A DNA stretch of 53,168 nt from Pseudobdellovibrionaceae bacterium (GCA_049315665.1 JBMOJS010000001.1:1-53168), one strand, 5' to 3'; shown: positions 14,730 to 32,507, counted from the first letter of the stretch. The notes: generated by a model from the sequence alone, not told the origin. Made by a program: numbers and translations.

Positions 14730-14824
14730 TAATGTTATATCGTCGTATTTACTTAGAATGTAAAATACTGCGACCACATCTGCAAAGCGAAAATCCGGTT
14801 TCTACCTGGTCTGAGAGCATCCAG

Positions 14825-14854
14825 AAGAATGGCCATTCTTTCGTTTTGGTTTTT
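14825..14854 (+). terminator. candidate terminator (16-nt palindrome plus T-rich tail)
   Basis: aagaatggccattctt followed by tcgttttggttttt. The AT-rich stem is weak. Confidence 0.35.
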
Positions 14855-14946
14855 GAGATTAATTTAGGAATTACTTCCGCGAATGTCTAGCTAAGGAAGG
14901 CTCAGTAAGATTGATAGCTGAGCACTCTGTTGGAAACTCAGTGCTT

Positions 14947-15525: not shown

Positions 15526-15650
15526 TGCAACTCCTTGTTTAAGTATCTACTTTAAATCTTTTGCGGGCCAGTTAACAGGCCAGTCTGGTCTAGAACCAAA
15601 TATTTGCGGTATTGCTTTCAGTCGTCTTGAATAAAAAATCTAGGCTAAAA

Positions 15651-16247
15651 CTATGACCTAGGTTTAATTGTAAGGTTCGAAGCCTGAAATTTAATACTCA
15701 TATCCTCGCTTGTTAGGGTATACATTATCAAGTCGACCCAATGATTTCGAAGGAATATGGCCCGTTTCTTTAGGCCTTCACGTCGCATTCCCAATGTCTT
15801 TGCAAGTTTTATTGATCGTATATTTCCTGGTTCAATACCAGCCTCGATTCTGTGAAGTTTGATTTCGTTAAATCCGATGTCCAGCATGGCTGAAACGGCT
15901 TCTTTTCCGTATCCCAATCTCCAATAGTTATTAAAAATTCGATATCCAAGGAACGCTGTGTGCGAAATACCTCGCACAACTTCCATAACCGAAACGGCGC
16001 CGACCAATGATCCATTTTTATCAAAAACGCCTAAATCATAAAATGTATCTTTTGTACGACGTTCTTTTTGAGGCTTTATTATATTCTTAAAATTGATCTT
16101 GGTTAGTTCACTTGCAGGCTTCGGACCGTGATCCCAGGAATTTTTTGGTGAACTCATCTTAAGATGTGCGTTTTTCCAACTATCAAAATCTTCTATCTTT
16201 AAAGGACGAATGGAGAGGTGTTTTGTGGTTCTGTTTAGATTTTTCAT
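15651..16247 (-). CDS. GNAT family N-acetyltransferase (RimJ/RimL-like)
   Basis: 198 aa with IRPLKIEDF..., GYGKEAVSAMLDIGF, RIEAGIEPGNIRSIKLAKTLGMRREG. Confidence 0.8.
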   Translation of the reverse strand: MKNLNRTTKHLSIRPLKIEDFDSWKNAHLKMSSPKNSWDHGPKPASELTKINFKNIIKPQKERRTKDTFYDLGVFDKNGSLVGAVSVMEVVRGISHTAFLGYRIFNNYWRLGYGKEAVSAMLDIGFNEIKLHRIEAGIEPGNIRSIKLAKTLGMRREGLKKRAIFLRNHWVDLIMYTLTSEDMSIKFQASNLTIKPRS

Positions 16248-16464: not shown

Positions 16465-16833
16465 TTAAACATCCCCATCTTCAGCCTCATCGACTTCCTT
16501 TTTTGGTTCGACTTTTTTAGCTTTTACAACCAGTTCAAATTTACTGTCAGACTTTCCTTTGGCTTTAGCTTGGGTCACTTCGCGCAGCAAGTGGCGAAGA
16601 AATTTAGCCTCATCGTAAAAACGATCAATCAATGCAGATAGGTCGCTGCCGCTTAAATTATCAGGTGATTTTTCAATCAACCAATTGATAAAATCTTTGC
16701 GAGATATTTTGACTCCCTTTTTCTTAGCACTGGCTTGTTCCAGCCAAGCATTGATTTTTTGAACAGACGCAGCTGACAGGGCAACATGTTCAAGCTTAGT
16801 GCGTAAACCTTCAGAATTTTCATTTTCGCTCAT
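16465..16833 (-). CDS. hypothetical protein translationally coupled to the methyltransferase
   Basis: 122 aa. ATGA overlap with the methyltransferase stop (16830-16833). Acidic/basic C-terminal tail. Confidence 0.5.
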   Translation of the reverse strand: MSENENSEGLRTKLEHVALSAASVQKINAWLEQASAKKKGVKISRKDFINWLIEKSPDNLSGSDLSALIDRFYDEAKFLRHLLREVTQAKAKGKSDSKFELVVKAKKVEPKKEVDEAEDGDV

Positions 16834-18197
16834 AGCCTTACCCCTTTCAGTCTTTTGGTGGCGATCTGGTGGTAGTTTTCGTCGCGCTCAATGCCGATGA
16901 AATTGTATTTTTCAAAAAGAGCAGCGACACCCGTAGTCCCCGAACCCATGAATGGGTCAAGCACTGTTCCATTGGGTGGAGTCAACATTTTGCAGAGATA
17001 CCGCATCAACCGAAGTGGTTTTACGGTTGGATGATTGTTGAGCGGATCGCGTTCGTCTTTTCCAGGTTTTTTGCAGTAAAGAAAAGGCGCTTCAGGCTTG
17101 AAATTTTTAAAGTACTGCGCAACCTCAACTTCGCGCTCGCTTTGATCGTTCATAACTCTGGCAGGGCAATCGAGATCATTTGATCGGGTTAGGATAACAT
17201 TTGCCGGGAATCGCCCGCTCGGATGTTGGTGATAGACTGAACTTTGACTGCGAGTACCAGCATCCCATAAAAATCCACCCTCACGAAAATCTAGATTTGT
17301 AGCAGAAGGAATTTTTCCGTGAATGGGAATGCGTGATTGGTCGATGTTGATGCCACCAACTCCATGTTTTAAAACATTGGCTGCGATATTATGTTCAGAA
17401 ATTGGCTTTTGGATGAGAATCCAGTGCTCACTTGCAGGTTTCAAAGCGGTGCCCCAACCAGTCCAAGGTTTTGATAAATCCGATATGGGTTCAGTCATTG
17501 CATTGTGCACACTTTTAAAAGCTAAGCCACCAATTCCACCAGCATCTTTTTTATATTGCCCTACGACTGTTCGCTTTGACCAATTTTCTCCGAGTTCATT
17601 GGCGGGTTTGATCATGGCAAACACCCACTCAGGTGCTGGCCCTAAAACAGCTTCCAATTTTTCCCACCGTTCTTTTGTTGGAACGTTTGGTTGGCCATGG
17701 GGAGGCATTGCCGTCCAGTGACAAGCACCGCCTTTAACTCCGGCAATTTCATCGAGCTTTTTGTTAGTTAGACCCAATTCGTCGCGCCGTGATTTAATCC
17801 AGCCAGTGACTTTAAAAAGCTCATCCGTGCTTGTGTATTTTGCTCTGTCGATGGCTTTATCAACCGCGACATTTTTAGGAAAGCCACTGCCAAAAATATG
17901 AGTGATAACATCTTTCACTTGAAAACCAGCATCTTCAAGGGCAGCCCCGGTCCAATGTGAAGTGCGTGGAATGGCCCAGACAAACCCATGCGCGCCGGGT
18001 TTTAAAATGCGATGGCACTCGGTCATGATTTGCGTAAGCCACGCGATCCATTCTTTTCTTCCGCCTTTATTTTTATCCCATTCAAGTCCGAGTAAGCCAA
18101 TGCCTGCTGGGGGATCAGTTACCAAAGAATCAATAGAATTTGCGGGGATCTTTTTTAAAATTTCGAGGGAGTCACCTAGGTAGGTTTGAAAATTCAC
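16830..18197 (-). CDS. site-specific DNA methyltransferase (N6-adenine/N4-cytosine, beta class), orphan
   Basis: N-terminal motif IV-like LVTDPPAG and C-terminal motif I VLDPFMGSGTTGVAA, with a long intervening region. No adjacent restriction endonuclease recognised. Confidence 0.8.
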   Translation of the reverse strand: MNFQTYLGDSLEILKKIPANSIDSLVTDPPAGIGLLGLEWDKNKGGRKEWIAWLTQIMTECHRILKPGAHGFVWAIPRTSHWTGAALEDAGFQVKDVITHIFGSGFPKNVAVDKAIDRAKYTSTDELFKVTGWIKSRRDELGLTNKKLDEIAGVKGGACHWTAMPPHGQPNVPTKERWEKLEAVLGPAPEWVFAMIKPANELGENWSKRTVVGQYKKDAGGIGGLAFKSVHNAMTEPISDLSKPWTGWGTALKPASEHWILIQKPISEHNIAANVLKHGVGGINIDQSRIPIHGKIPSATNLDFREGGFLWDAGTRSQSSVYHQHPSGRFPANVILTRSNDLDCPARVMNDQSEREVEVAQYFKNFKPEAPFLYCKKPGKDERDPLNNHPTVKPLRLMRYLCKMLTPPNGTVLDPFMGSGTTGVAALFEKYNFIGIERDENYHQIATKRLKGVRL

Positions 18198-18260: not shown

Positions 18261-18659
18261 TCAGTCCTTAGACCACTCTCCCGGATTTTCCAGAATGAAT
18301 ATGCGGTGAGATTTAATAAACTTATTGCCTTCAATTGTATCGGGCACGATGTAGGACCGAATCTTCGGTCTTGTTAAAAAGGGCGCCAGCTCTTCTGGGC
18401 TTTCCTTTTTTGCGCTGGCGTTTGCTACCTCCTTCTTTTGCTTGTCATTAAAAGCCAAGTAGCCAATGATTGAGCCAAGTCCTGCGCCGACAAGAGTGCC
18501 AATAGCTGTTCCACCAGAGTTTTGTGATTGAGATTGGCCCAATCCTGCTCCGGCGGAACCACCGGCAACTGCTCCCATCAAAATTGATTTCGGCGCCGTC
18601 GAACAGGCATTCAACATCAGCGGCAGCGTAAGAACTGCAGCCAGTTCATTGATTTCCAT
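18261..18659 (-). CDS. glycine-zipper lipoprotein
   Basis: ATG at 18659. Lipobox LMLNAC. Gly-zipper GAVAGGSAGAGLG...GTLVGAGLGSIIGY. Confidence 0.6.
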   Translation of the reverse strand: MEINELAAVLTLPLMLNACSTAPKSILMGAVAGGSAGAGLGQSQSQNSGGTAIGTLVGAGLGSIIGYLAFNDKQKKEVANASAKKESPEELAPFLTRPKIRSYIVPDTIEGNKFIKSHRIFILENPGEWSKD

Positions 18660-18738
18660 GCAGACACATCCTTTCTTTAAGTGTTTATGACCTTGATTCT
18701 TTGGTTTTTTCAAAATTTAGTTTGAAGTTGTAAGAGGT

Positions 18739-18810: not shown

Positions 18811-19692
18811 TCAGGCTTTTAGGACATTTGGTTTGGTGGGATAGGTTGTTGAATGGATTGGTCTTCTGCGTGAATCAAGAAGTGCCAGGGTGCCACAGCT
18901 GAGATGTGATTGAGACGACATTGTGGCGGTCTTGTGACTCAAAAAATCAGAAAGGCATCGACCTTGAAATTGGCCCTCGGTAAATGGAGCCAGCCAACCA
19001 TTTTTTATAAAATCACAGTGAAGAATGAATTGGTGTTTGGACCACTCACGTATCTGAAGCTTTTCAAAATTACGTTTGAGCGTATTCAGCGTGTTCTTTG
19101 AGTCGACCAACCAAAAGACGTAATCAATTGCTGGTTGGTTATCATAGAAAGTGACAACGCTTTCATAACGCTTTTTAGCCTTTGGTGAGATCTCGGCTTC
19201 GAAAGCAATAACGACTCTCTTTTCTTTTGATTGATATGCCGAATAGCCATCGGGTCTATGTAGTGCTGAACGAGGTATCCAAGTGGGCCATAGATCTGAA
19301 GGATAACATCGTAGTTGTTGTTCACTGTAGGTCTGAGTGTTATTTGGCTGCTGAGTTAACCAATCACCGAGATGAAATGCTGTCGCCAAGAAATCGTGTG
19401 GATAGTTTGCGGACTTAAATCCTTGTGAGTCAAGATCGCCGAGGTGAGGAAGAATATATTTGAATCCCTTTTCTTTTAAAATCCATGCTTCATGAAATCT
19501 GCCGCTGACAACATATGACCCAAGATAACCATCAGATTCTAAAAATAAAAGACGTCGGTAAGCCGAAAACGCATGCACACCTGGAAAAAATTTTTGCGCC
19601 AAAGCTTGCGTCGAGACAGCCTTCCACTTCCAAACAAACCTCAAAATTTTATAATCACGATCGGTGATTTCACAATGCTTTTTATTTTTCAT
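18811..19692 (-). CDS. replication-relaxation family-like protein (candidate relaxase/DNA-processing protein)
   Basis: N-terminus ITDRDYKILRFVWKWKAVSTQALAQKFFP...YRRLLFLESDGYL (winged-helix pattern of this family), later YPHDFLATAFHL and PDGYS...VIAFEAEIS. Lies directly downstream of the FtsK-like gene. Confidence 0.5.
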   Translation of the reverse strand: MKNKKHCEITDRDYKILRFVWKWKAVSTQALAQKFFPGVHAFSAYRRLLFLESDGYLGSYVVSGRFHEAWILKEKGFKYILPHLGDLDSQGFKSANYPHDFLATAFHLGDWLTQQPNNTQTYSEQQLRCYPSDLWPTWIPRSALHRPDGYSAYQSKEKRVVIAFEAEISPKAKKRYESVVTFYDNQPAIDYVFWLVDSKNTLNTLKRNFEKLQIREWSKHQFILHCDFIKNGWLAPFTEGQFQGRCLSDFLSHKTATMSSQSHLSCGTLALLDSRRRPIHSTTYPTKPNVLKA

Positions 19693-19716
19693 TGAGTTCC
19701 TCTAGCGGCTGTCGAA

Positions 19717-21180
19717 CTAATCAGTCTGGCCTGGATCAAGTGTTTGCTCAGCGTTTTCAGAACTTGAATTTGATTTGGAATTTTCTAAACTTCTTTTTGG
19801 TTTTTCCTTTTGCAAAGCATCTGCTGGTCCAAGAAGAGTTTCAGTCACTTCAACAGATAAAAACGGAGTTTGAACTTCAATCATTTCGATGCCATTCTTC
19901 CAAATAGCACGACCAGGAATTTTTGGAAGATCTGTAGCGCGTCCGTTGCCAAGAACTGCAATACTTGAAGCGTCGTTCATCATCTGAAAACAAATAACTC
20001 CTGTAAGATTTGCTTTGACCTGGGGATCAAGTGATCGACTGTCTGGACGCTGGGTCGCTACAACAATGTGAACACCAACGGCACGACCTTGTCTTGCAAT
20101 CCGGCTTAATATGGCTCGAGCTGCTTGAACCTCGGTGGATTTTGCATGGTGACCAGCCAAAAACATCTCTGCAGCTTCATCCACGACAACGATTTGCCGT
20201 GACAGGTTCATAGATTTTTCTGCTTTCTTTTCCTTTTTGAAATAACTGTCGATGTCTTTGCAGTGATTTTCTTTTAAGAAGGTCATGCGGTCATCAAGTA
20301 ATGTGTTGATATGCTGAAGTTGTTCAACTGCTGCCAATACATGGGGAACTACTACAAAGGACTTTCTATTTTCAAACATAGAAAACTCTAGGCCGCCTTT
20401 AAGATCAATCAGCAAAAACTTGCAGCCTTTTTCGTGAATATACAGATGCACAATCAGTTGGCGAAGAAATGTTGATTTACCACCACCAGTTTGCCCGGCT
20501 ACAAGTAAGTGCGGGGTATCTCGAAGTGTTGTGGTGATAGAATGGGCTCTTGTTTGACCGACCAAGAACTCATATGAACGCGAAGTTGAGCTTTGCGTGT
20601 ACAAGACTGTTTCCGCCATTGGAAAATGGGAGTAGATGATATCGACGGCGCGGCGTTCACGATTTTCTTTAATTTCATCGATGAAGACGCCAAGTTCAGA
20701 TTCAATGTATTTTGATTGATCGCGAAAGCTTGAGACCGGAAATCCAGCATTTGTTAAGCGCATTTTTCGAGTCAGCGGATCAAGAGGATAGTCAGAGATT
20801 AGATTTGGAAGACGACCAATTTTTGATTCAAGTCCGGCATTTTTAAATGCGTTGGTCAGAATCTTGAGTTTGTCATTCTTCTTTTTGACCTCGCCCCAGG
20901 CCCATAGCCAAAATGCCAACGTCGAAAAAGAAAACGCATAAATCTTGTAAAGAATCGGATGATAAGGGTACAGGCCACTGAACCGTGTATGACTCAGAAT
21001 AAATAGATCAATTTTAAGATAGAGCACTACTACCGAGCCCAACATCCATCCCGTGCAAACGGGCCATGGAATGGTGTTGGTCTTGATTCCGCGAATCAGT
21101 TCTTTAATGGGCTCAAGAAGTACAGACAAATTTTTGAGCGTCGTTTGAATACGCGCATGAAGGTCGTTTTGTTTTTGCAT
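19717..21180 (-). CDS. FtsK/SpoIIIE family DNA translocase (conjugative coupling-type ATPase)
   Basis: N-terminal TM helices. Walker A VAGQTGGGKST, Walker B VVVDEAAEM, and VHIVVATQRPD. Confidence 0.85.
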   Translation of the reverse strand: MQKQNDLHARIQTTLKNLSVLLEPIKELIRGIKTNTIPWPVCTGWMLGSVVVLYLKIDLFILSHTRFSGLYPYHPILYKIYAFSFSTLAFWLWAWGEVKKKNDKLKILTNAFKNAGLESKIGRLPNLISDYPLDPLTRKMRLTNAGFPVSSFRDQSKYIESELGVFIDEIKENRERRAVDIIYSHFPMAETVLYTQSSTSRSYEFLVGQTRAHSITTTLRDTPHLLVAGQTGGGKSTFLRQLIVHLYIHEKGCKFLLIDLKGGLEFSMFENRKSFVVVPHVLAAVEQLQHINTLLDDRMTFLKENHCKDIDSYFKKEKKAEKSMNLSRQIVVVDEAAEMFLAGHHAKSTEVQAARAILSRIARQGRAVGVHIVVATQRPDSRSLDPQVKANLTGVICFQMMNDASSIAVLGNGRATDLPKIPGRAIWKNGIEMIEVQTPFLSVEVTETLLGPADALQKEKPKRSLENSKSNSSSENAEQTLDPGQTD

Positions 21181-21361
21181 TTGGGAGGCTGTTGGAAGAT
21201 TCGAATAATTCAGCTATGACGCGCCGAGTACCAATAGATTTGCACATCCGTGCCTGCGGTTAAGGACCGCTGGCTACCATTTTTGAAGCAATACTCAGTA
21301 ATATTTAATAATTGAATTCTTAAGCATGTTAGGGTCTACTCAAAGGCCATCAGGGGATCCT

Positions 21362-21805
21362 ATGAAACTAATCATTTTGTGTTGTATTGCTACACTAAGC
21401 TTTGCTGGCGATGTCTTTGCCTCATGCCCTGATATTTCAGGCTCTTATCAGTCTGGTGATCAAATTTTTGTCGGTTATGAGCAAACGGACTGTCAATTTT
21501 TGAAAAGATATTACGGAAATATTGTTGCCGACGGTTCGGTAAGTTACAGCTTCGACAAGCAATTTAAAAACGGGAATGCAGTTTGTTCTAAATCTGGTGC
21601 TTGTGAAACAGTCAAGTTTACTCAAGACGCCGTTGTTTTCGAGCTCAATTTTAATGGTGGGGTCTTAACTGATGATCACGGCCACTGTAGCCACCGGAAG
21701 TATTCGTTATCCAAAGATACCGGCGGTAATCTCGCTGCCGTCTTTTCTGTTTTCGCTTGCAAAGATGGCTTCAAAGGTGAAGCAAGAAAAGTATTTCTTA
21801 AATAG
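21362..21805 (+). CDS. secreted hypothetical protein
   Basis: ATG at 21362. Signal MKLIILCCIATLSFAGDVFA. Several Cys residues. No family recognised. Confidence 0.5.
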   Translation: MKLIILCCIATLSFAGDVFASCPDISGSYQSGDQIFVGYEQTDCQFLKRYYGNIVADGSVSYSFDKQFKNGNAVCSKSGACETVKFTQDAVVFELNFNGGVLTDDHGHCSHRKYSLSKDTGGNLAAVFSVFACKDGFKGEARKVFLK

Positions 21806-21857
21806 ATAACCAAAAGCGCAGGTTATAATTCCATTGCTTTGGCCTTGCCAACTCTGC

Positions 21858-22775
21858 TTACTGTCCTAATTCAAAAATCACAAAAATTTCCTGTCCCGCT
21901 GAAATTTGAATAATCGGGGCGGAGTTTTTAAGATCCGTCATCGTTTCATTGGCCATTTCAAGAGTGGCTTTGCTGGCTCCATTGAGAAGAGCATTCTGGG
22001 CTGTAGGCTTTGTCACAACTTGCTGGCCGACGACTTCGCGATCTTGAAGGCCTTCAGCCATACCACCGACAAAATTAAGACCAATGGCAGTCGCATATTT
22101 CATGGCGTATTTTCCTACCCGTGACCCGCGTAGACCAACGATTTTATCTTCGACATCGGCAGCTTGAGCCTGAATGTTTTCAAAATTTCCGTCTTTAAAT
22201 ATAACTTGTGTGAATCGCACCATAAGCCGCTCTTCAGTGGATTGGCCAGAACCAAGCAAAGTTGCACCAGCGGGGATCAATGTTTCCCCCTGAATACGAA
22301 GCGCTTCAGTGGTTGTAGCTTTGACCGGGCCATTTGAGGCGCCAGTTGTTAATACGGCTTTTACAAGGCTTCCAGGAGGAATTAGTCCGGCTTTATGACG
22401 ATCAATTTTTTGAAGGCCAGGAAGTCTAATCACCAAATATTGTCGACCTTTGTTGTTTTGTTCCTTGATACGCTTATTTTCTTGGGATGCAGAATACATT
22501 TCAAAAGTGTCCAAGTCTGAATTTGAACTGACTTGTGAAGCTTCGGGTGTTTTTACACCTGGGCCTTCCCGAAGGTTTTTATCAGGACTTTTCATTAGAA
22601 AAACTACAACCAGTGAAACGCCGGTGGCAATTGAACAAACTTTTATTGTCCTGCTAGAAAGAACTTTGTTATCCTTGCCAAATCCAAACCGTGATTCAAT
22701 TTTTGGCTCAGTGGTGAGTTCGACCAGTTGTTTTTTATTTTCCATTTTTTTTCGCCAAGACCTTGTCTGCGTCAC
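21858..22775 (-). CDS. virB10: T4SS VirB10/TrbI-like protein
   Basis: N-terminal TM, then LIPPGSLVKAVLTTGASNGPVKA...LIPAGATLLGSGQ...RLMVRFTQVIFKDG...D..GLRG, the TrbI-family pattern. The start codon is uncertain (GTG at 22775 or ATG at 22745). Confidence 0.7.
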   Translation of the reverse strand: MTQTRSWRKKMENKKQLVELTTEPKIESRFGFGKDNKVLSSRTIKVCSIATGVSLVVVFLMKSPDKNLREGPGVKTPEASQVSSNSDLDTFEMYSASQENKRIKEQNNKGRQYLVIRLPGLQKIDRHKAGLIPPGSLVKAVLTTGASNGPVKATTTEALRIQGETLIPAGATLLGSGQSTEERLMVRFTQVIFKDGNFENIQAQAADVEDKIVGLRGSRVGKYAMKYATAIGLNFVGGMAEGLQDREVVGQQVVTKPTAQNALLNGASKATLEMANETMTDLKNSAPIIQISAGQEIFVIFELGQ

Positions 22776-23106
22776 AGTCTTTAATGAAATACAGTGTCAC
22801 ACCTGATGATGAGGTCGCGAGGTCAAGTACGAACCTTCGTCCCTGAAGATAAACGAACAAATTTGATTTTGAACCCATCACAGTCGGTGAAATCGCCAAA
22901 TCACTTCTAATATATTCAATCGAGAATGAATTTTTAGTTCCCAGGACAACCTTCTCGGGCTCAGAGGGAAAATCTAAAACGGTGCCTTTCGGTGATATGT
23001 AAATGGTGGCCACACTCTTTTCACAAAGTTTAATAGTTTTGACGTTCTCTGCAAATACTTTTGATGACAAGCAAAGGGCCAGAATCACTTGAATCAAGGC
23101 AATCAT
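22735..23106 (-). CDS. T4SS VirB9/TrbG N-terminal-domain-like protein
   Basis: Signal peptide. Pattern ATIYISPKGTVLDF..VVLGTKNSFSIEY...ISP...SNLFVYLQGRRFVLDL resembles the VirB9 N-domain. Only 123 aa, so there is no C-terminal domain. Position fits trbG. Confidence 0.45.
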   Translation of the reverse strand: MIALIQVILALCLSSKVFAENVKTIKLCEKSVATIYISPKGTVLDFPSEPEKVVLGTKNSFSIEYIRSDLAISPTVMGSKSNLFVYLQGRRFVLDLATSSSGVTLYFIKDCDADKVLAKKNGK

Positions 23107-23639
23107 TTGTCCTCCTTGTCTTCAATTTGATTGATCGAACTAATAATGAGGCCGTATGGATTTGATTCCGTCCGGTTTGATTTCTGCACGACTACTTTTA
23201 GATTGAGCGAAAGTGCTGATCTAATTTTTCCGACAGAAAGTAGCCGATCTGTAGTTACCAAAATTTCTTTTCCATCAGATTTTACATCCTGAACTAGAAT
23301 TCGTTGTTGAATCTGGCGCTGCTTTAGGGTCATTTGTTCTTTCTCGCGTGAAACCGTTTCTTCAATAGAAAGAAACCCTTCTTTTAAGTAACCGTTGGAG
23401 TCAAATCGCATGGAAAGCGCTTCGACCAAAAAGGCTTCGATTTCATTTTTTGTCGGATCAATGGGCTTTGCTTGAAGCGGACGAGAGAAGCATCCCCGCT
23501 CAATGACGGGCAAATCGCGAGCCGCAAGTCCACCAATCACAAACAATTGTACGATCGATACAAGCGCCAAGACAAGGGTCGCAATTTTAAGTGTCACATT
23601 CTGAGCTGCAGTTTTAGCCCAAGCAGTTGTGAATTTCAT
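23103..23639 (-). CDS. T4SS VirB8/TrbF-like protein
   Basis: Single N-terminal TM, a ~130-aa periplasmic domain, and a C-terminal NPYGLII motif resembling the VirB8 NPxG. Position fits trbF. Confidence 0.55.
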   Translation of the reverse strand: MKFTTAWAKTAAQNVTLKIATLVLALVSIVQLFVIGGLAARDLPVIERGCFSRPLQAKPIDPTKNEIEAFLVEALSMRFDSNGYLKEGFLSIEETVSREKEQMTLKQRQIQQRILVQDVKSDGKEILVTTDRLLSVGKIRSALSLNLKVVVQKSNRTESNPYGLIISSINQIEDKEDK

Positions 23640-23671
23640 TTTCCCTCCAAGATTTATTTATTACGCCCAAT

Positions 23672-24616
23672 TTAAGAATCGCTCTGGACAGGCTTTTCTT
23701 GTGGGGCTTGCAATCGTTTTGAAAACTGATTTTTTACAATTCCTGGAGCGGTCTTCGCGCCTTTATAGGTTTTTTTCGTTCCTTGCCAAGCTTTGCTCGC
23801 TCCCCATCCATAGGCTTTTTTTGTTCCTTTGGATGCGAGTCCTGCTAAGGCCCCAGGACTTGCCAGTCCGGCTGACAATCCAATGGCAGAAAGGCCAGCC
23901 GTTTGACTTGCAACGTTTGAAAGAGCTCCAGATATTAGATTTCGAACAACAATGGGTGTGAGAAGAATTGAAAATGCCAGCATTAATGTCAAAGCCAAAA
24001 GCGTAATGAAGTTTTGCCCCTTGGCTTCAAAATTATGTAAAGCCGTGCTCCATAGTAGTGTGCCTAGAACGGACCACACAATTTTCCAGGCAGCAATTTC
24101 AAAAAGTGTTCGGAATAATCCCCCGGTCATTGCTGCTGTTTGAGGCAAAATATAAAATGCGATCATGATGGGTGAAAAAATATAAAGAAGAACCAGGCAG
24201 TAAACAATAGCCGCATCAAAAAAGAAAACCGTGAAATACAGAATAAAATAAGCCAGGATCGCTACCACCGAAAGCAGGGTGTCGCCAAGTGAGGTCCACG
24301 ACCATGAGTGTTCCTTGAATGTCGCGCCTGCGGTTTTAAGGACTGCCTTATAGTTGTTGATGCTACCAAGGTGATCAGAGACTGCATCCGCGACTGCGGC
24401 AATCCAATTTGATATCTGAGGATATGCAATCAGAAGTATTGCCGCAATGAGTGCTCTACCAACTAACTGTTGAAAGGCCGGAACGCCACCAATGGGCATT
24501 TTAAAATATTCGATCAATACACCAATCACTAGCAGAAGAACAGCTAGCGCATAGAATATCGACACGAAAAATGTATGAATCTCTTTTGCCTGTGATGAAA
24601 TCCAAGAAATATCCAT
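23672..24616 (-). CDS. T4SS VirB6/TrbL-like polytopic membrane protein
   Basis: 314 aa with at least 6 hydrophobic helices and a G/A/K-rich C-terminal tail. Position fits trbL. Confidence 0.6.
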   Translation of the reverse strand: MDISWISSQAKEIHTFFVSIFYALAVLLLVIGVLIEYFKMPIGGVPAFQQLVGRALIAAILLIAYPQISNWIAAVADAVSDHLGSINNYKAVLKTAGATFKEHSWSWTSLGDTLLSVVAILAYFILYFTVFFFDAAIVYCLVLLYIFSPIMIAFYILPQTAAMTGGLFRTLFEIAAWKIVWSVLGTLLWSTALHNFEAKGQNFITLLALTLMLAFSILLTPIVVRNLISGALSNVASQTAGLSAIGLSAGLASPGALAGLASKGTKKAYGWGASKAWQGTKKTYKGAKTAPGIVKNQFSKRLQAPQEKPVQSDS

Positions 24617-24627
24617 AGCGTTAAGTC

Positions 24628-25314
24628 CTATTCAAATCGTGGGAGCTTAAATTGCGGTTCTGCTCCGGCAAGAGCCGCGTTAATATTGTCAGCACCAGCC
24701 ACCATTTGACGGGTTTGATCTTTATCCTTTCGATTTTGCAGCGCCAGGGTTTGTGCTTGAAGCTTGAGACCAGTCGCTTGGGTCCTAAGCATTTCGTTTT
24801 GAAGATTCAGCATAACCCCAATTGACTGGGCTGTGAGTTTCGCAGCCCCTCCGGGGGATACGGAATGACTCTGTGATTTGATCAGTTCACCAATTTCGTC
24901 AATCATCGTCGTGTATTTATAGATGGAGTTATTGAGCGCAACGGCTTCAGCGATACTCTGATCCGTATCTTTTTGAACCCTGGCATCATGTGAATCGACC
25001 ACAATGCCGTAAATGCTTTCAATCTTTAATAGGGCATCAGACGCTTTTTCCCAGTCCTTATAAAGTCCGGGATCAGTATTTGGACCAATTGTTCGAACAA
25101 GGTTCAGCGAGTCGTTGATACCGCGATTGATGTCGCGGACTAGGTTTAAGTTGTCGCGCCCGGTATTTAAAATACTTTGCAGTTGGGCTAGTTGCTCAAG
25201 GGCATTTATCAATATTTTAGCTAGAATAATATTTTCTTCCCCAAACATGCTGGCCCGAGATTGAGGAACACAAAACATTATCACTGTAGTTGCAATTGCT
25301 ATTGTCTTTTTCAT
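24628..25314 (-). CDS. T4SS TrbJ/VirB5-like secreted helical protein
   Basis: Signal peptide, ~200-aa helical/coiled region. Position between VirB4 and VirB6 analogues. No diagnostic motif. Confidence 0.4.
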   Translation of the reverse strand: MKKTIAIATTVIMFCVPQSRASMFGEENIILAKILINALEQLAQLQSILNTGRDNLNLVRDINRGINDSLNLVRTIGPNTDPGLYKDWEKASDALLKIESIYGIVVDSHDARVQKDTDQSIAEAVALNNSIYKYTTMIDEIGELIKSQSHSVSPGGAAKLTAQSIGVMLNLQNEMLRTQATGLKLQAQTLALQNRKDKDQTRQMVAGADNINAALAGAEPQFKLPRFE

Positions 25315-27728
25315 CGAACCACCTTTTGGGATGCAGATATCCCTTTTGGATATTGCTTTGACATCATTTTAAGAATTTCAAATTGTGGAAGACCAGGCTC
25401 ATTAAGTCGCAAGGTTTCAATAGCTGAAAGATCTCGAGGGTCCGTTGTTGCAATCCAAAGTTCAAGGGGTGTGGGTTCAATCACTGCGATGGTTCTACGT
25501 TCTGGTCCCGCAACAAGAAAAGCCTCAGAAAATTCACCTTTTTCTTGGTGAAGAGACTGAATAAGAGCCACTTCGTTATCGTTGAGCCCCAATGCTTCCT
25601 TCATTTTTGTGAAGTCACTCTGGTTTTGCATCAGAATCCATTTGACTGAACAGTTTGGAAGCAGGGCTGATGAAATTTTTGAATTTAAAAAATCCAAAAG
25701 ATCCTGACTGATGGCCGTGGCTGAGCAGTAGTATTTTCGAACCGTTCTAAAAATTTCCTCGATGAAAACAAGACCGGCTTCATCCTTAAGTAGCTTCCAG
25801 CACTCGTCAAAAACAATAAACTTCATTTTTGATCGGTCGCGCTGAACTTCTCGCCAAACCAGGTCTGTAATAATATATAAACAGACCCCTTGAAGATCAG
25901 GGTAACTTTCTAAACCCTTCAAATCAAAAGTGACTATGTCTCTTTGAAACTCTATCGTCGTTTTTTGATCTAGAAATTTTCCATAAGGAGTATTCCCGCA
26001 CCATGGGGCCAAGATTTTTCCATAAGTCTGAATTTCTTTTTCAGGGTGTTTTAATAAGATTTCGCGAAGGTCTGATATTCTTGGATTTTTCGAAGTTTGG
26101 TAGACTTTCTGAACAGCATCTTCAATTTCAGCTCTTGCCAGTTTTGGAATTCGGTCTGAGCCCTCTTCCTTGGTCATAAGTTCAACAAGACCCACAATAA
26201 ATTTAATCTTATGGGATGAGGGTTTTGTTTCACCAGGAACAAGATCAAATGGATTCACCGATAGTTGATCGTCGACTCCAAGCTCAACGTATTGTCCGGA
26301 TAGGTTCTCTGTCAGTTTTCGATATGATCCACCAATGTCGATAAAAAATACCTTTGGATTTTCTTTGAGCATTTGTAGTAGCAACAAATTCGTCATGAAT
26401 GACTTTCCTGACCCTGACCCACCGCTAATTAATTGATTGGCGTTAGAGAGCGAGCTGTCGAAAATGTTCAAAGCCGTTAGACTTCCCATTCTAGATTTTA
26501 GCAAAATACTGGGTGTTTCGTGCCCGGGCCAAGGACCATATAGCGGAATCAAGTCACAAAGATTTGATGTTTTGATCCGCCTTGAACGTTCTTTTGACCT
26601 AGCGTTGGGAAGTGAAACTTGCGAAAAAATATCAAATGCTGCCAAGGTTTCAGTCATAGCTTCAGCACCGCCAAGTTCCCTGAATTTTGCAAGAGTCATG
26701 TCCACTTGATTTTCTAGATCGCTTTCCGATTCACTTTGTAGTAGCACCGTGATTGAGACATGAAATACTTTTTGACCTTGGGCGATCATTTGTTCAAGTA
26801 AGACTTCAAGATCCTGAAGCTTCGCATTGCTCTCGATGTCTGAAACACCCGTGTGTTTTCCTACTACCATGGAAAAGGCAATTCGCCTTTGAATTTGCAG
26901 ACTTTCGATTTCTTTTGTTTGATCCGGCACATGAATGGTAGCGAGCAGTCTTGATTTAAATGGAAGCTCACGAAGTTTTGCTGCCATCGATGCAAAAGTT
27001 TGATCTGGAAGTGCTTTAAGGGACAACACTCGAAAGTGTGTTGCCCCAATGACAAATCCGCTAAGATTGATTCCTACATCGGAAAACAAAATACTCTGTC
27101 TGACCTCTTCAGGATCATAGGAACTAAAAGGAATTCGTCGGGATGGATTCCACTGCATATACAACAGTTCAGCGATGTCGTTCGCAGCCATTGATTGCGC
27201 TTTAACACCTAAGGCACTCAGTCCTTGAATAATGTTTTCCTTCAAACGCAAAGTGATTTCTATTTCATGGGCAAGTTGTTTCTCTGAAGTCTCTTGAAAT
27301 AATTTTTCCCTTGAAAATAGCGTTGGTTTTGAAAGTAAATTTTGTGAAAGTGATTTTCTAACAACGACTTTTAATCGGTGGGTTGGAATCTGCCCCTCAT
27401 CGTCCGAAGCGCGAAGTAAGGCCACTCTTTCATCACAGAGAGACTTAGCTAATTCATTGTTTGCGTTCGCTGCGAGCTTTTGATGGCAGGTGATAATTTT
27501 TTCATTTCCTGGTACAATATCCTGTATAAATTGAATGTCAATTTTTGAAGGCAAACTGTTTAGGAACTGAGCTACGTTTTCTGAAAAACTATTGATACGT
27601 TCATCACTCCAAGTGCTGACGTCCACTGGAACGCAATTCAATAAGAACCCTAGAGACCCGTCAGAATAAATGATTAAGTCCTTTTCGAAACCCCAAATTT
27701 GCAAGTTATCGGCTAAAGCATAAGTCAT
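25311..27728 (-). CDS. virB4: T4SS VirB4/TrbE ATPase
   Basis: 805 aa. Walker A GGSGSGKSF, Walker B FIVFDECWKLL, and C-terminal ..ATAISQDL... Confidence 0.9.
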   Translation of the reverse strand: MTYALADNLQIWGFEKDLIIYSDGSLGFLLNCVPVDVSTWSDERINSFSENVAQFLNSLPSKIDIQFIQDIVPGNEKIITCHQKLAANANNELAKSLCDERVALLRASDDEGQIPTHRLKVVVRKSLSQNLLSKPTLFSREKLFQETSEKQLAHEIEITLRLKENIIQGLSALGVKAQSMAANDIAELLYMQWNPSRRIPFSSYDPEEVRQSILFSDVGINLSGFVIGATHFRVLSLKALPDQTFASMAAKLRELPFKSRLLATIHVPDQTKEIESLQIQRRIAFSMVVGKHTGVSDIESNAKLQDLEVLLEQMIAQGQKVFHVSITVLLQSESESDLENQVDMTLAKFRELGGAEAMTETLAAFDIFSQVSLPNARSKERSRRIKTSNLCDLIPLYGPWPGHETPSILLKSRMGSLTALNIFDSSLSNANQLISGGSGSGKSFMTNLLLLQMLKENPKVFFIDIGGSYRKLTENLSGQYVELGVDDQLSVNPFDLVPGETKPSSHKIKFIVGLVELMTKEEGSDRIPKLARAEIEDAVQKVYQTSKNPRISDLREILLKHPEKEIQTYGKILAPWCGNTPYGKFLDQKTTIEFQRDIVTFDLKGLESYPDLQGVCLYIITDLVWREVQRDRSKMKFIVFDECWKLLKDEAGLVFIEEIFRTVRKYYCSATAISQDLLDFLNSKISSALLPNCSVKWILMQNQSDFTKMKEALGLNDNEVALIQSLHQEKGEFSEAFLVAGPERRTIAVIEPTPLELWIATTDPRDLSAIETLRLNEPGLPQFEILKMMSKQYPKGISASQKVVR

Positions 27729-28045
27729 CAGAAATTTCCTTTAAGTTTTGGGGGTACGGCTGTGTTTGTTGAGTCTTGAAAAGCTGAGAGATATTTTGGC
27801 TGCGCATAAAACTTCCCCAGATGAACAAGATAATTTTCAGGTTTGCCGCGCTTTCCGATTCTTAAAACAATAGCAAAAGCCGCAACTGGTCCCCATACCA
27901 ATGCAAGTTTGTAGTTGGTCTGACCAAAACTAAAATTTAAAATTGAAAGCAAAAGAAAAATTGCAAGCACATCAGGAACTTCGAATCCCATGATCAGAAG
28001 TTTTTTTTCCAGATTTTGACTTGTGGGCTCTGAACGCAAGGCCAA
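27728..28045 (-). CDS. T4SS VirB3/TrbD-like small membrane protein
   Basis: 105 aa with two hydrophobic segments. ATGA overlap with the virB4 start. Confidence 0.45.
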   Translation of the reverse strand: MALRSEPTSQNLEKKLLIMGFEVPDVLAIFLLLSILNFSFGQTNYKLALVWGPVAAFAIVLRIGKRGKPENYLVHLGKFYAQPKYLSAFQDSTNTAVPPKLKGNF

Positions 28046-28098
28046 ATTGTAAACTCCTTGAAAAGATAAAGGGGCTCTTGAGATTGCGCAAACGATCG

Positions 28099-28389
28099 TT
28101 AATTAACGATGCCGCGAATGAAAGTCATAATGCTGGGAGCACCAAAGCCGATGATCATTCCAATTATTGCGAGCCACAGATGAGATCTTGCGCCGGGATT
28201 GCCAGTAAAAAATGAAAAGGCCGCAAACACAAGACCTAGAACTGCGCACAGGGGTAAAATCGTATTGATAAGCTTAGATTGAATGGCCCCAAGGGTTGAC
28301 TCGACACTGCAATATCCTAGGACAGGAACCAGTAAAACCGACAACGCAATAATAAAAATAAAAGCTGAATTTGACAACTTCATAAGCAC
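28099..28389 (-). CDS. T4SS pilin, VirB2/TrbC-like
   Basis: 96 aa. Long signal/leader followed by two hydrophobic helices (LPLCAVLGLVFAAFSFF...WLAIIGMIIGFGAP), the classic pilin layout. Confidence 0.55.
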   Translation of the reverse strand: MLMKLSNSAFIFIIALSVLLVPVLGYCSVESTLGAIQSKLINTILPLCAVLGLVFAAFSFFTGNPGARSHLWLAIIGMIIGFGAPSIMTFIRGIVN

Positions 28390-29196: not shown

Positions 29197-29526
29197 TCAT
29201 TTTTCTGGTGGTAGTGGAAGTCCTGCCAGTTGAATTGCGACTTTGCATTCTTTGTCGCTCCAACCCCATTGGGGAAGTGGATTTGTTACAACTTTTTCCA
29301 GTTGGTCATAGGTTAAGTGCGGGTGAATTAACATCCGCGGCAGTTTTTTATTTTCTAGCCATGAATTAATAGTTTGTAAGTATTGTAAATTTTTATCGTC
29401 AGTAGTTCCCGTATAGGCAATTGTATCAATTGCTACTCGAAACTGAACCAATCCGACTAAAATTGCAGTATCGCGCAGTTCACATCGATACAAAACTGTA
29501 ATAGGGGCTTGGGTTTTAATTTTCAT
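29197..29526 (-). CDS. hypothetical protein
   Basis: 109 aa. Its start abuts the stop of the upstream gene (29526/29527). Confidence 0.45.
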   Translation of the reverse strand: MKIKTQAPITVLYRCELRDTAILVGLVQFRVAIDTIAYTGTTDDKNLQYLQTINSWLENKKLPRMLIHPHLTYDQLEKVVTNPLPQWGWSDKECKVAIQLAGLPLPPEK

Positions 29527-29925
29527 TTAAGCCACCACTCCACCATCGACGCCAAGCAAGCTGTCGACCGTAACTTTATCTGGAAAAAGGCTCATGAAAA
29601 CCCGCTGACGTGGAAACGTGAACTGAATTTCAAGGTGTTTTTTAAGATCGCGAGATACGAACCCAAATCCAACAGGCCTGCGAAATATCGGATCAGAATC
29701 ATTTCCAAGTTTTTTAGCAAAAAGAGTAAAATTGCCATCCTCACTTCGATTTGAAGTGAGGTAAAAAACTTCCCTTGGAAAAGCCCACATCTTCACTATG
29801 TAATAGAGCTTCGCAGGGCCTTCGACTCCATAAGCTTCTCCGGCTTGAAGTTCATGACAGATAACTGAGCCTTTGCGGTAGCCCGTATAGATATGAAATC
29901 GACCCTTGATGTTTGAATTTTCCAT
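29527..29925 (-). CDS. hypothetical protein
   Basis: 132 aa. No family recognised. Confidence 0.45.
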   Translation of the reverse strand: MENSNIKGRFHIYTGYRKGSVICHELQAGEAYGVEGPAKLYYIVKMWAFPREVFYLTSNRSEDGNFTLFAKKLGNDSDPIFRRPVGFGFVSRDLKKHLEIQFTFPRQRVFMSLFPDKVTVDSLLGVDGGVVA

Positions 29926-29937
29926 TTTCCCCCCGGG

Positions 29938-30309
29938 TTATTTAAAATTAGAGTATATTCCGCTTCGCATCTGCAGCTCACGGTTCTTTTCTTTCGCTTC
30001 ATTAAAGCTCTGTTCAATTCTTCTCGCATTTTGAATGTCTTTTTCAAGCCCATCAATCATTTCAGCGATCAGGCTTTTCAGTTTTTCCCAAGTGTGAAGC
30101 AAGTGGGTTTTTTGACTCAAAGTTTTTGCTTTTGCAGTCATCGACTTTTCAATTGTTTGAAAATTCGATACAAGAACTCGAAAATCTTCGACGGGTCGCT
30201 TATTTTCAGGAATTGATTCTAGACTGACTGCCTTTGTCATGTGTTCGTTTTGTTCAATATCAGCTAACAGAGAATCCAACGTTGGCATTTTTAATACTTT
30301 TGAATTCAT
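29938..30309 (-). CDS. hypothetical coiled-coil protein
   Basis: 123 aa, helical K/E/Q-rich. Confidence 0.45.
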   Translation of the reverse strand: MNSKVLKMPTLDSLLADIEQNEHMTKAVSLESIPENKRPVEDFRVLVSNFQTIEKSMTAKAKTLSQKTHLLHTWEKLKSLIAEMIDGLEKDIQNARRIEQSFNEAKEKNRELQMRSGIYSNFK

Positions 30310-30312
30310 AAA

Positions 30313-30633
30313 TTAGGCTCCCTTTTTTGCTTCTGTTGATTGGTCGTCAGAATCAGCCGCTGACTTTTTCGAGATGAGCATTTTACATTGGCTCCGAAGC
30401 TGTGTGGGTTTTGGTATGAAAGTTTCTTTTGCGGCTTGATTCAAATCATCCATTCCCCCACGGGATACGTCCCAGGCCAATGAGTCCCAGTCGCACGATG
30501 AACACAAAACATCTGGAATAAAATGAATCAGATCGCAATCCCCACATTTTGGACACTTCTTAAAATAATCAACTGGCTTAGTTCGCTTTTCCGCCTTCTC
30601 AAAAATGTCTACAGTTCGTAATTCCACTTTCAT
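30313..30633 (-). CDS. zinc-ribbon hypothetical protein, first gene behind the sigma54 promoter
   Basis: ATG at 30633 behind gggggtg. CPKCGDC...CSSCDW. Confidence 0.5.
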   Translation of the reverse strand: MKVELRTVDIFEKAEKRTKPVDYFKKCPKCGDCDLIHFIPDVLCSSCDWDSLAWDVSRGGMDDLNQAAKETFIPKPTQLRSQCKMLISKKSAADSDDQSTEAKKGA

Positions 30634-30690
30634 AACATCACCCCCAGAGTCAGTTGTTGATATAAAAAATTGCTTTATATCTATTGCTAG

Positions 30691-30706
30691 GGCAACCATC
30701 GTGCCA
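30691..30706 (-). promoter_or_regulatory. sigma54 (-24/-12) promoter
   Basis: The minus strand reads TGGCACgatggTTGCc, an exact GG-N10-GC spacing matching 15 of 16 positions of TGGCAC-N5-TTGCW. It lies ~58 nt upstream of the ATG at 30633, and a sigma54 activator gene is adjacent and divergent. Confidence 0.7.
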
Positions 30707-30968: not shown

Positions 30969-32507
30969 TTGGAAGAATTATCAATGACAAACACAGTTTC
31001 AATTCTGGTTATCGACGATAGCAAAGCGGATCGCTTAGCCAACATTATTGAGTGCAGAAGGATCTTTAAAAATATTCCTGATGTTGAATTTCACATCGAA
31101 GAATCGGCGACTTTGGAAAATGCATTTCAGAAGGCATCAGAGAGTACGTTTCACATTATTCTTTTGGATAAAGACCTTGGAGTTGATTCAGAAGGTAAAC
31201 GTATTTCTGGAATTGATAATATTCAAACACTTAAAGCCCTTCAGCCCCATGCACAAATATTTATGGTCACAGCTGACGAGAGGTATGAGGAAATTGTAGC
31301 TGCAATGAAGCTTGGTGCCTACGACTATTTTTTAAAGAGTTCAAATCCCGTAAAAGTTGAATACCGTTCTGTCATGCTAGAGCGCGCCTTCGAACGATCG
31401 GTTGAAGACCTTAAAGCTACGATGACAAGATCCACTAAGACAGGACTGTATTCTGAGTTTGTCAGCCAAGCGCCAGTTATGAAAATGCTCGATCAAAAAA
31501 TCAAGGCCATTGCTGAGTCATCACGGCCAGTTTTAATTCTTGGTGCTACAGGCCTTGGCAAAGGTGCCACTGCACGCAGAATCAGTCAGTTTCGCGCGAA
31601 CTTTCTAAAGCAAACCTCAAGACACTTTGTAAATATTAATATTGGAGCCATGTCAGACACCCTTGCTCAAAGCGAACTTTTTGGGCAGGACGCCTATTCA
31701 TATACAGGATCAGGTTCAAAAATGAAACCCGGTCTACTTGATGTCGCAAAAGGCGGCGACATCTTTCTTGATGAAGTTGGCGATGCGTCTGCCGAAATGC
31801 AATCTAAGCTTTTAAAAGTTATTGAAGAAAAGCAATACCTCCGCGTTGGCGGCAGACAGCCCATTCAAACCAACGCTCGGTTTATTTTTGCCACGAATAA
31901 AAATATGCGCGAGCTGGTGCGAAGTGGAAAGTTTCGCGAAGACTTATATATGCGCATGCAAGCATTTGAAATTGAAATCCCGGCTCTTGAGGAACGAAAA
32001 GAGGACCTTCCGCAAATTATTGAAGCTTGCCTACGAAATGCCCTGACCGAGGTAAAACATAAGCAAATCTCTATTAGTGATTTCCCTGAAGATCTGATGC
32101 GCTACTTGATGCGTGATAATATCCCTGGCAATATTCGGGGAATAGAAAATGACATTACAAAGTTAGTTTCTTTCATTCCGGTGGACTCACTTGGTAGGCC
32201 GATTCTGAAAGAGTGGAAAAACATTCTTGGTGGAAATACGCCTTTCAGAAAATCGCGTTCAAAAATGAGCCTTGATGATTTGCTATCGGCTGATACAGAA
32301 TTGGTTGGCTCTTCGTTTCCTGGCTATAAAAAAGCCCAAGAGATTTTTGAGAAAAAAATGATCGAAGAAGTTTTAGAGAAGACTGGGAATATGGTAACGG
32401 CAGCAAAGCAACTTAAAATTGCGAAGTCGACTTTAAGTGTAAAAATGAGACACCTCAATATCAAGACTCCAAAGGAAGTTAGGTACCATGAATCAAAAGC
32501 AACTTAA
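30969..32507 (+). CDS. sigma54-dependent response regulator (REC + AAA+ activator + Fis-type HTH)
   Basis: REC (ILVIDDS...ILLDKDLG...MVTAD), AAA+ (LGATGLGKG, ELFG, IFLDEVGD, FREDLYMRM), C-terminal HTH (AAKQLKIAKSTLSVKMRHL). Start is TTG at 30969 or ATG at 30984. Confidence 0.88.
   Translation: MEELSMTNTVSILVIDDSKADRLANIIECRRIFKNIPDVEFHIEESATLENAFQKASESTFHIILLDKDLGVDSEGKRISGIDNIQTLKALQPHAQIFMVTADERYEEIVAAMKLGAYDYFLKSSNPVKVEYRSVMLERAFERSVEDLKATMTRSTKTGLYSEFVSQAPVMKMLDQKIKAIAESSRPVLILGATGLGKGATARRISQFRANFLKQTSRHFVNINIGAMSDTLAQSELFGQDAYSYTGSGSKMKPGLLDVAKGGDIFLDEVGDASAEMQSKLLKVIEEKQYLRVGGRQPIQTNARFIFATNKNMRELVRSGKFREDLYMRMQAFEIEIPALEERKEDLPQIIEACLRNALTEVKHKQISISDFPEDLMRYLMRDNIPGNIRGIENDITKLVSFIPVDSLGRPILKEWKNILGGNTPFRKSRSKMSLDDLLSADTELVGSSFPGYKKAQEIFEKKMIEEVLEKTGNMVTAAKQLKIAKSTLSVKMRHLNIKTPKEVRYHESKAT

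Follow-up and report, generated by a model that had tools for sequence, protein, structure and literature searches.

In this work we analysed a stretch of 53,168 nt from Pseudobdellovibrionaceae bacterium (GCA_049315665.1 JBMOJS010000001.1:1-53168, the whole of which is referred to as the window), with a focus on the gene cluster at positions 18811-28389. Judging from comparisons of protein sequences and predicted folds, this interval is likely to be the transfer core within an integrative and conjugative element (ICE) of Bdellovibrionota, which would combine the channel of a diderm type IV secretion system (T4SS) with a TcpA-like ATPase and a MOB_C-like nuclease. The ten minus-strand open reading frames (ORFs) of an initial annotation were all found at the same coordinates. 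The Trb/VirB-like order that it had proposed for the channel genes (VirB2-VirB3-VirB4-VirB5-VirB6-VirB8-VirB9-VirB10) was confirmed by ORFs, by profiles and by synteny in related loci (Table 1).

A genome scan with VirB4 gave 28 loci, which come from metagenome-assembled genomes (MAGs) of Bdellovibrio, Pseudobdellovibrio, Bacteriovoracia or Oligoflexia, with the exception of a single bin under the name Streptomyces griseus and some assigned just to Proteobacteria/Pseudomonadota. At least 21 of these 28 independent loci (cited below by labels such as L034) share one order of 12-13 genes, with protein identity of 30-86%. The order starts with a 132-aa protein, the pilin, VirB3, VirB4 and the VirB5-, VirB6- and VirB8-like proteins, and continues with the VirB9-like protein, TrbI, the FtsK-like ATPase, a 293-aa protein, a lipoprotein, in some loci a methylase, and a 122-aa protein. 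A second genome scan added further loci with conserved gene order; in all, this order is kept in more than 30 loci, every one of them from Bdellovibrionota. Several MAGs (LWDK01, JAKFYD01, CAYNEF01 and JADZEO01) carry two copies per genome. The synteny of the transfer genes is not due to chance. Since the small components gave weak matches in the window copy alone, we collected relatives and scanned the orthologues singly.

The genome scans revealed no locus outside Bdellovibrionota with this combination of parts. Distant 'TcpA' matches in Fibrobacter, Saccharibacteria, Chloroflexi and others were set aside: most of these ORFs are considerably longer (about 600-1400 aa), they have no VirB4 nearby and are probably ordinary FtsK, and thus provide no evidence of other diderm TcpA systems.

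The coupling ATPase and the putative relaxase

The initial annotation had paired a membrane-anchored ATPase of FtsK type with a replication-relaxation-like protein. The pairing itself stood, while the ATPase is better described as TcpA-like than as generic FtsK. In the comparison with PDB sequences, it matched best the 'DNA translocase coupling protein' of entries 6o1w/x/z (6e-33, 117 bits, residues 101-439), with lower scores for FtsK (55 bits), EssC/EccC (42-56 bits) and TrwB (11.6 bits). When 72,556 plasmids were searched, the top matches all came from Tcp plasmids of Clostridium perfringens. In pCpb2-CP1, the matched gene is located between tcpM and a second FtsK-like gene, after which come tcpD, tcpE and a VirB4-like gene, and this neighbourhood puts it in the tcpA position. 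The hidden Markov model (HMM) of the ATPase family gave 177 bits for TcpA of pCpb2-CP1, in comparison to 10.8 bits for TrwB of R388. A hydropathy scan indicated one N-terminal hydrophobic segment, and a second one was read by eye; the protein carries no FtsK gamma domain and ends shortly past the motor domain. The PDB, plasmid and HMM scores, together with the hydrophobic anchor, point to a coupling-type ATPase. By these measures it is TcpA-like, i.e. from a recognised alternative family of coupling proteins, and not a generic FtsK. Matches to the ATPase at E<=1e-5 numbered more than 800 clusters (90% identity).

TcpA of the pCW3-type Tcp system of C. perfringens is the closest characterised relative of the ATPase (26-29% identity over 80-90% of its length, 117-177 bits), and it has the same build of an N-terminal membrane anchor and an FtsK-like motor. 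The Tcp system likewise has neither VirD4 nor VirB11. However, it lacks VirB9, VirB10, the pilin and VirB5, all of which are present here in a diderm host, and its relaxase is TcpM (MOB_M), whereas the nuclease in the window is MOB_C-like. TcpF of that system has no detectable similarity to the VirB4 in the window. The TcpA family is usually met in Firmicutes, with a channel of the MPF_FA class of mating-pair formation (MPF) systems and a MOB_T or MOB_M relaxase, and not, as here, in Bdellovibrionota with VirB9, VirB10 and a MOB_C-like protein. Since a diderm channel, with a VirB4 unlike TcpF, is joined to a TcpA-type motor, the machine would be a mosaic. TcpA homologues were found only in Firmicutes by Guglielmini et al. 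(PMC3548315), and the nomenclature review of December 2025 gives VirD4 for 'all Gram-negative T4SSs', with TcpA limited to a subset of MPF_FA (PMC12857230). In streptococcal elements, TcpA was never seen together with MOB_C, which is paired there with VirD4 (PMC5357655); here the MOB_C-like protein is paired with a TcpA-like one. Our full-text literature searches for Bdellovibrio or Bdellovibrionota with conjugation or T4SS returned no account of this system.

The partner of the ATPase is the 293-aa protein. The initial annotation saw no MOB-family relaxase in the window, which now appears wrong in spirit, as the family of this protein is probably a divergent branch of PF13814, i.e. of MOB_C. 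Across 115-141 members, residues H99, D148, G149 and E165 are invariant, and D100, E124, Q125, E167 and K171 are nearly so, and conservation of this kind resembles the PD-(D/E)XK pattern. At the N-terminus there are matches to the winged helices of MecI, BlaI and MarR, and in the AlphaFold2 model (pLDDT, the predicted local distance difference test, 90.9) its fold is matched by MarR as well, at a non-significant level. The NCBIfam model NF041423 (MobC_subf, 'MobC family replication-relaxation protein') aligned with residues 144-213, the catalytic core, at 2.5e-6. PF13814 (Replic_Relax) was matched by 8 of 20 orthologues (E<=1; best 1.5e-5) and by 41 of 141 representatives of the family (E<=0.01; best 2.3e-6), and it was the only recurrent family among the relatives other than helix-turn-helix (HTH) families. 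The PF13814 matches indicate a kinship with MOB_C at the superfamily level.

PF13814 is the MOB_C family of CONJscan (Coluzzi et al., PMC5357655). MOB_C relaxases are PD-(D/E)XK enzymes with an N-terminal winged helix in TraX, and they are known from both Gram-negative and Gram-positive bacteria (PMC12857230). The 293-aa protein resembles TraX of pAD1 and MobC of CloDF13 in its N-terminal winged helix and its PD-(D/E)XK-type core with the conserved D...ExE..K, and it differs from them in that its match to the family, recurrent but weak, falls far below the curated thresholds. On the basis of the conserved residues, the winged helix, the MobC_subf and PF13814 matches and the MOB_C literature, we read it as a divergent MOB_C-type relaxase, and a recognised MOB family is thus probably present in the locus. 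Strict membership in MOB_C is not established, as the protein is below every curated threshold. Its family comprises 403 clusters (50% identity) at E<=1e-30 and is unnamed in public records. A tblastn search of the 72,556 plasmids with the 293-aa protein gave no match. The family HMM was also run against the ORFs of CloDF13, where it touched only the ExE..K motif of the fragmented mobC region, at a non-significant level, and this match was discarded.

Channel genes and outer-membrane components

The assignment of a P-type channel in the initial annotation does not hold at the level of sequence. The VirB4-family ATPase was matched by the profiles PF19044 (TraG P-loop, 2e-39), TIGR02746 (TraC, 1e-83) and TIGR00929 (2e-60); together with VirB10/TrbI and the FtsK-type ATPase, it is one of three proteins that profiles support strongly. 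Among the VirB4 models, the F-type TraC scored best, with 282 bits (cutoff 567), in comparison to 49-118 bits for the TrbE models (cutoffs 810-1322), and against TrwK of R388 the score was just 48-58 bits. The best plasmid matches were found in Myxococcus pYRE (234-253 bits), Deinococcus, Thermus and F-like TraC.

The remaining channel genes were assigned with unequal support. The pilin is 47-86% identical across 23 loci. For the VirB5-like protein, TIGR02791 was matched by 8 orthologues (best 1e-5). The VirB6-like and VirB8-like proteins of the window had no profile match of their own; for the former, PF04610 (TrbL) was matched by 6 orthologues (best 1e-6), and also in L030, and the family HMM matched a neighbour protein of pYRE at 5e-10. 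The VirB8-like family has an invariant C-terminal NPYGL, which hhalign sets on NPLGF of TrwG, and gave recurrent sub-threshold matches to TraE and DotI/IcmL, which we take to be VirB8-fold families. When this family was aligned with the single TrwG sequence, the NPxG motif alone was aligned (hhalign probability 0.2), and its profile gave no match among PDB sequences. At the end of the channel operon, TrbI had no match in a tblastn search of the 72,556 plasmids.

For the VirB9-like protein, the profile E values of the window copy were 0.02-0.07, 8 orthologues matched (best 6e-4), and orthologues also matched CagX (6e-5), TraK of Bacteroides and DotH; the family profile found nothing useful among PDB sequences. 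The AlphaFold2 model, based on 120 sequences (pLDDT 87), was more informative. Its ten best fold matches in the PDB are all homologues of the VirB9 N-terminal domain in solved T4SS core complexes, with the N-terminal domain of R388 TrwF at E 1e-6 (TM-scores 0.68/0.73). Further matches were DotH, Xanthomonas VirB9, CagX and F/pED208 TraK, followed by generic immunoglobulin-like domains at E>=1e-2. The search for relatives gave 490 at E<=1e-3, and the 120 listed are all 120-144 aa long, carry no Pfam annotation and, like the window protein, lack the VirB9 C-domain. Thus the missing C-domain, which had been noticed before, is a trait of the family and not an artefact.

Profile scans of every ORF between 9.7 and 38.6 kb gave no VirB11, VirD4 or VirB1/lytic transglycosylase, and a six-frame Walker-A scan of 11.3-31 kb returned only VirB4 and the FtsK-like ORF; the absence of these three components had been noted correctly. 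The absence of VirB11 is normal outside P- and I-type systems. The denial of a VirB7 in the whole window by the initial annotation is doubtful, because directly downstream of the 293-aa gene there is a gene for an outer-membrane lipoprotein (true start probably at the Met at 18659) that may be a VirB7-type component. This lipoprotein, with synteny kept in 16 of the first 28 loci, matches Gly-zipper_Omp (6e-7) and has an invariant lipobox Cys and a conserved, TraV-like C-terminal motif (P.LT.PK.RS..VPD.IEGNKYIK.H.VFILE..G.WS). TIGR02747 (TraV) was touched by 2 orthologues at 1e-3, a weak match.

With a TcpA-like ATPase, no VirD4 and a VirB9 without the C-domain, the architecture is atypical for a diderm T4SS, as had been suspected. 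With the R388 Trw and the Ti/RP4 Trb operons it shares the gene order, the fold of the VirB9 N-domain and the TrbI domain, like a minimised MPF_T system; however, MPF_T systems have VirB11, VirB1 and VirD4, and their VirB9 C-domain, missing here, builds the outer ring with VirB7. The likeness to F-type systems lies in VirB4 and VirB3, for which TraC and TraL are the best-scoring models, in the absence of VirB11 and in the weak TraV similarity of the lipoprotein, whereas the F-specific genes (TraW, U, N, F, H and G) are all missing and the TraC score remains well below its cutoff. The plasmid pYRE of Myxococcus stipitatus differs in encoding a VirD4-type coupling protein. We therefore infer a system that is conjugative in build, as a T4SS and an ICE, yet fits none of the defined types.

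A side result concerns pYRE itself (L031, 11354-18115), where VirB4 lies in an unannotated operon with detectable VirB5- and VirB6-like neighbours. The plasmid is typed as non-mobilizable in PLSDB; it is probably conjugative, with a T4SS from a related clade, and has escaped recognition as such.

Table 1. Features of the element and its borders in the window, from left to right.
Feature	Position	Strand	Evidence or remark
tRNA-Lys	11382-11457		ARAGORN; beside tRNA-Glu
tRNA-Glu	11469..11544	+	ARAGORN; chromosomal gene at left end of element; probable integration target
Large serine recombinase (element integrase)	11488..13101	-	Resolvase 1e-10 and Recombinase 4e-9
Variable/accessory region	13104..16247		133-aa Cys-rich ORF beside recombinase, two Cro/C1-type HTH regulators, FlgC-like secreted protein, GNAT acetyltransferase
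Conserved 122-aa protein	16465..16833	-	Found in 13 of the first 28 loci, at a constant position
N6/N4 DNA methyltransferase, orphan	16830..18197	-	PF01555 2.8e-30
Outer-membrane lipoprotein, candidate VirB7/TraV analogue	18261..18713	-	Directly downstream of 293-aa gene
Winged-helix and PD-(D/E)XK nuclease, divergent MOB_C/Replic_Relax-type putative relaxase	18811..19692	-	293 aa
TcpA-like FtsK-family coupling ATPase	19717..21180	-	PF01580 FtsK_SpoIIIE 1.2e-21; Walker A GQTGGGKS
674-bp insertion, window copy only	21183..21856		Between trbI and tcpA-like gene
VirB10/TrbI	21858..22775	-	PF03743 2.6e-21, profile positions 2-183 of 188; transmembrane (TM) helix at residues 43-61
VirB9 N-terminal-domain-only protein	22735..23106	-	123 aa; signal peptide and beta-sandwich of ~100 aa
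VirB8-like bitopic protein	23103..23639	-	178 aa; position in operon; one N-terminal TM helix
VirB6/TrbL-like polytopic membrane protein	23672..24616	-	314 aa; at least 5 hydrophobic segments
VirB5/TrbJ-like secreted helical protein	24628..25314	-	TIGR02791 1e-3 in the window
VirB4-family ATPase	25311..27728	-	Closest to TraC-type; unclassified clade
VirB3/TraL-like protein	27728..28045	-	TIGR02762 TraL 7.6e-5; DUF3487 8e-3; two TM helices
VirB2/TrbC-type pilin	28099..28389	-	PF04956 TrbC 2e-4; T4SS_pilin 7e-4; signal peptide and two TM helices
Leader genes	29197..30699	-	132-aa protein (29527-29925), 109-aa protein (29197-29526), two small ORFs
Sigma-54 -24/-12 promoter TGGCACGATGGTTGC	30692-30706	-	Head of transfer operon
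Upstream repeat AGTTCGAAGTTCGAAACT	30796-30813		18-bp block ~100 bp upstream of sigma-54 promoter
NtrC-type sigma-54 activator	30969..32507	+	Receiver, AAA+ and Fis HTH; divergent from operon

Borders of the element and control of the operon

We infer an element of about 19 kb or more, reaching from the tRNA-Glu gene and the recombinase (~11.5 kb) to at least the head of the operon (~30.7 kb). It has the hallmarks of an ICE: a tRNA-adjacent integrase, two types of integrase in the family, variable cargo beside a conserved core, and two copies in several MAGs. The initial annotation had recognised neither an ICE beside a tRNA gene nor the wide spread of the family in Bdellovibrionota. The 3ʹ end of the recombinase ORF overlaps the complete tRNA-Glu gene on the opposite strand, and in L030, which encodes a 640-aa homologue of the recombinase, the same overlap is seen with tRNA-Asp (15620-17542 and 17430-17506). 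From this overlap, it would seem that the 3ʹ end of the tRNA is either provided by the element or adjoins it. A copy 65% identical to the recombinase is located at the same end in L003, and tRNA genes are present at the matching end also in L004, L007, L010 and L027. Targeting of tRNA genes is more typical of tyrosine integrases. In the SG_bin7 relative ('Proteobacteria bacterium SG_bin7', L194), a tyrosine integrase (15075-16358) is located where the window has the serine recombinase, which looks like a swap of the integration module within the element family. After the integrase gene, this locus carries genes for arsenate reductase, MerR and a heavy-metal ATPase.

The search for an empty site by means of the neighbouring Dps gene recovered no syntenic empty site, because Dps is too widely conserved and synteny is not kept. 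Neither attL/attR, an empty site nor an origin of transfer (oriT) could be defined. On the chromosomal side, at 9726-10642, we also noticed two divergent paralogues of 6-pyruvoyl-tetrahydropterin synthase, with 5ʹ ends overlapping by 7 bp, beside the Dps/ferritin gene.

The nucleotide homology to the closest relative, L034, ends at 16516. The accessory region is not conserved in the related loci, and L029 carries Fic and other genes instead. One cargo ORF of the window (14947-15525, minus strand) encodes a protein with a signal peptide and an N-terminal FlgC match (TIGR01395, 5e-15), and it stands away from flagellar genes. The orphan methyltransferase is present in a subset of loci (L002-L005, L011, L029, L030 and L034). 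The 674-bp insertion carries a plus-strand ORF (21326-21805) for a secreted Cys-rich protein of 159 aa, for which there was no homologue in the related loci and no family match. It is absent from L034, where trbI and the tcpA-like gene are 8 bp apart.

At the head of the operon, the 132-aa leader protein is conserved at a fixed position in 19 loci. Neither the leader proteins nor the 122-aa protein had a family or PDB match; the 132-aa and 122-aa proteins may have accessory roles in the relaxosome, or regulatory ones. The promoter pattern TGGCAC-N5-TTGC has a single match in the 53-kb window, in comparison to 0.15 expected by chance. The promoter and the 18-bp repeat block are perfectly conserved in L002 despite a diverged spacer, and similar sigma-54 promoters were found in L016 and L030. 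The gene for the NtrC-type activator, the probable regulator of the operon, is adjacent and divergent in L002, L004, L005, L009, L011, L016, L030 and L194. The conserved promoter and repeat, taken with the recurrent adjacent activator, make sigma-54 control of the transfer operon likely in this subgroup, i.e. the window copy and its close relatives. This would be an unusual mode of control for a conjugation operon. Downstream of the activator (32968-37222, plus strand), there are genes for a family-5 solute-binding protein, a 368-aa protein with a faint YcaO match and a histidine kinase; at least the solute-binding protein is shared with the SG_bin7 relative, whose contig ends there.

Proposed transfer mechanism and its alternatives

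If the interval is indeed the core of an ICE, a mechanism can be drawn in which every step derives from homology. The NtrC-type response regulator would switch on the operon from the sigma-54 promoter, in the window copy and its close relatives, and the serine recombinase would excise the element. The 293-aa protein would bind oriT by its winged helix and cut there with the PD-(D/E)XK site, in the manner of MOB_C TraX. A membrane-anchored hexamer of the TcpA-like ATPase would then replace VirD4 and feed the DNA to an inner-membrane platform of VirB3, VirB4, VirB6 and VirB8. The periplasm and the outer membrane would be spanned by a reduced outer-membrane complex, composed of the barrel formed by VirB10, the VirB9 N-domains arranged as a ring, and the TraV-like lipoprotein, and a VirB2 pilus with VirB5 would contact the recipient.

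Several results weigh against this reading. For the 293-aa protein of the window, the NF041423 score was 27 bits with a cutoff of 200, there was no Pfam match, and the matches of the nuclease part of its model to the restriction enzymes FokI, PaqCI, BsaWI, MunI and BamHI were not significant (best E 5e-3). The VirB8-like assignment is the weakest among the channel genes. Searches turned up neither a direct repeat of the tRNA-Glu end nor a displaced tRNA-Glu fragment marking the far end, and the intergenic regions gave no inverted repeats or oriT-like hairpin, so that the attachment (att) sites and oriT are undefined. The sigma-54 promoter was seen in just 4 of about 8 loci with the adjacent activator. 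Finally, the 674-bp insertion, with its ORF on the opposite strand, could impair the expression of the DNA-processing genes.

Among the alternatives, the transfer of double-stranded DNA fares best, but we still regard it as improbable. Here the FtsK/TcpA-like motor would pump duplex DNA, and the PD-(D/E)XK protein would make a double-strand or non-covalent cut, with no piloting of a single strand. Streptomyces TraB pumps double-stranded DNA. The ATPase in the window is far nearer to both TcpA and FtsK than it is to VirD4, the likeness of the TcpA hexamer to FtsK has led to the suggestion of double-stranded DNA for pCW3 TcpA, and no covalent DNA intermediate has been observed for MOB_C (PMC12857230). 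However, the rest of the machine (VirB2-VirB10) is a T4SS of the single-stranded DNA type, the ATPase has no gamma domain, and TcpA-associated elements of Firmicutes with MOB_T are treated as single-stranded DNA systems (PMC3548315).

A broader proposal, for which we see an equally small chance, is that the system forms a class of diderm conjugation machine of its own, so far without a name, which would in effect add a ninth MPF type, present in Bdellovibrionota alone. Such a class would use the FtsK/TcpA-type motor and a nuclease of the restriction-endonuclease type, with no covalent pilot protein, and would pass possibly duplex DNA through the complex of VirB10, the VirB9 N-domain and the TraV-like lipoprotein.

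It is even less probable that the window copy has lost its function and is a remnant, in the course of decay, of the element family. The window-specific insertion between trbI and the tcpA-like gene would fit such a decay, as would the far end left unmarked by a tRNA-Glu fragment or repeat; but all conserved core ORFs of this copy are intact and full length, with invariant catalytic residues kept, and serine recombinases need no long repeats.

The least probable option is a T4SS that does not transfer its own DNA, with the integrase merely adjacent, but delivers proteins or DNA to prey or neighbours, or releases or takes up DNA: the predatory hosts, the missing oriT and att sites and the action of some VirD4-less T4SSs in DNA uptake or toxin delivery (PMC12857230) would agree with it, whereas in every complete locus the channel genes are kept in strict synteny with those for the coupling-type ATPase and the relaxase-type nuclease, the ICE hallmarks listed above speak for a mobile element, and conserved effector, immunity or toxin genes are absent.

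As the transfer core of an ICE with a diderm channel, a TcpA-like ATPase and a MOB_C-like nuclease, the family would break the rule by which coupling in Gram-negative T4SSs is left to VirD4 and TcpA is confined to one lineage of Firmicutes (PMC3548315; PMC12857230). It would represent a second case, independent of the first, in which an FtsK-like motor is paired with a T4SS channel, here with a MOB_C-type nuclease, and would provide a diderm system for testing if TcpA-type motors transport DNA as single or as double strands. The naturally minimal outer-membrane core, in which VirB9 has no C-domain, may be of use to structural work. As an abundant native mobile element of predatory bacteria, it could serve as a genetic tool, or act as a route of gene flow, in organisms that are considered as living antibiotics.

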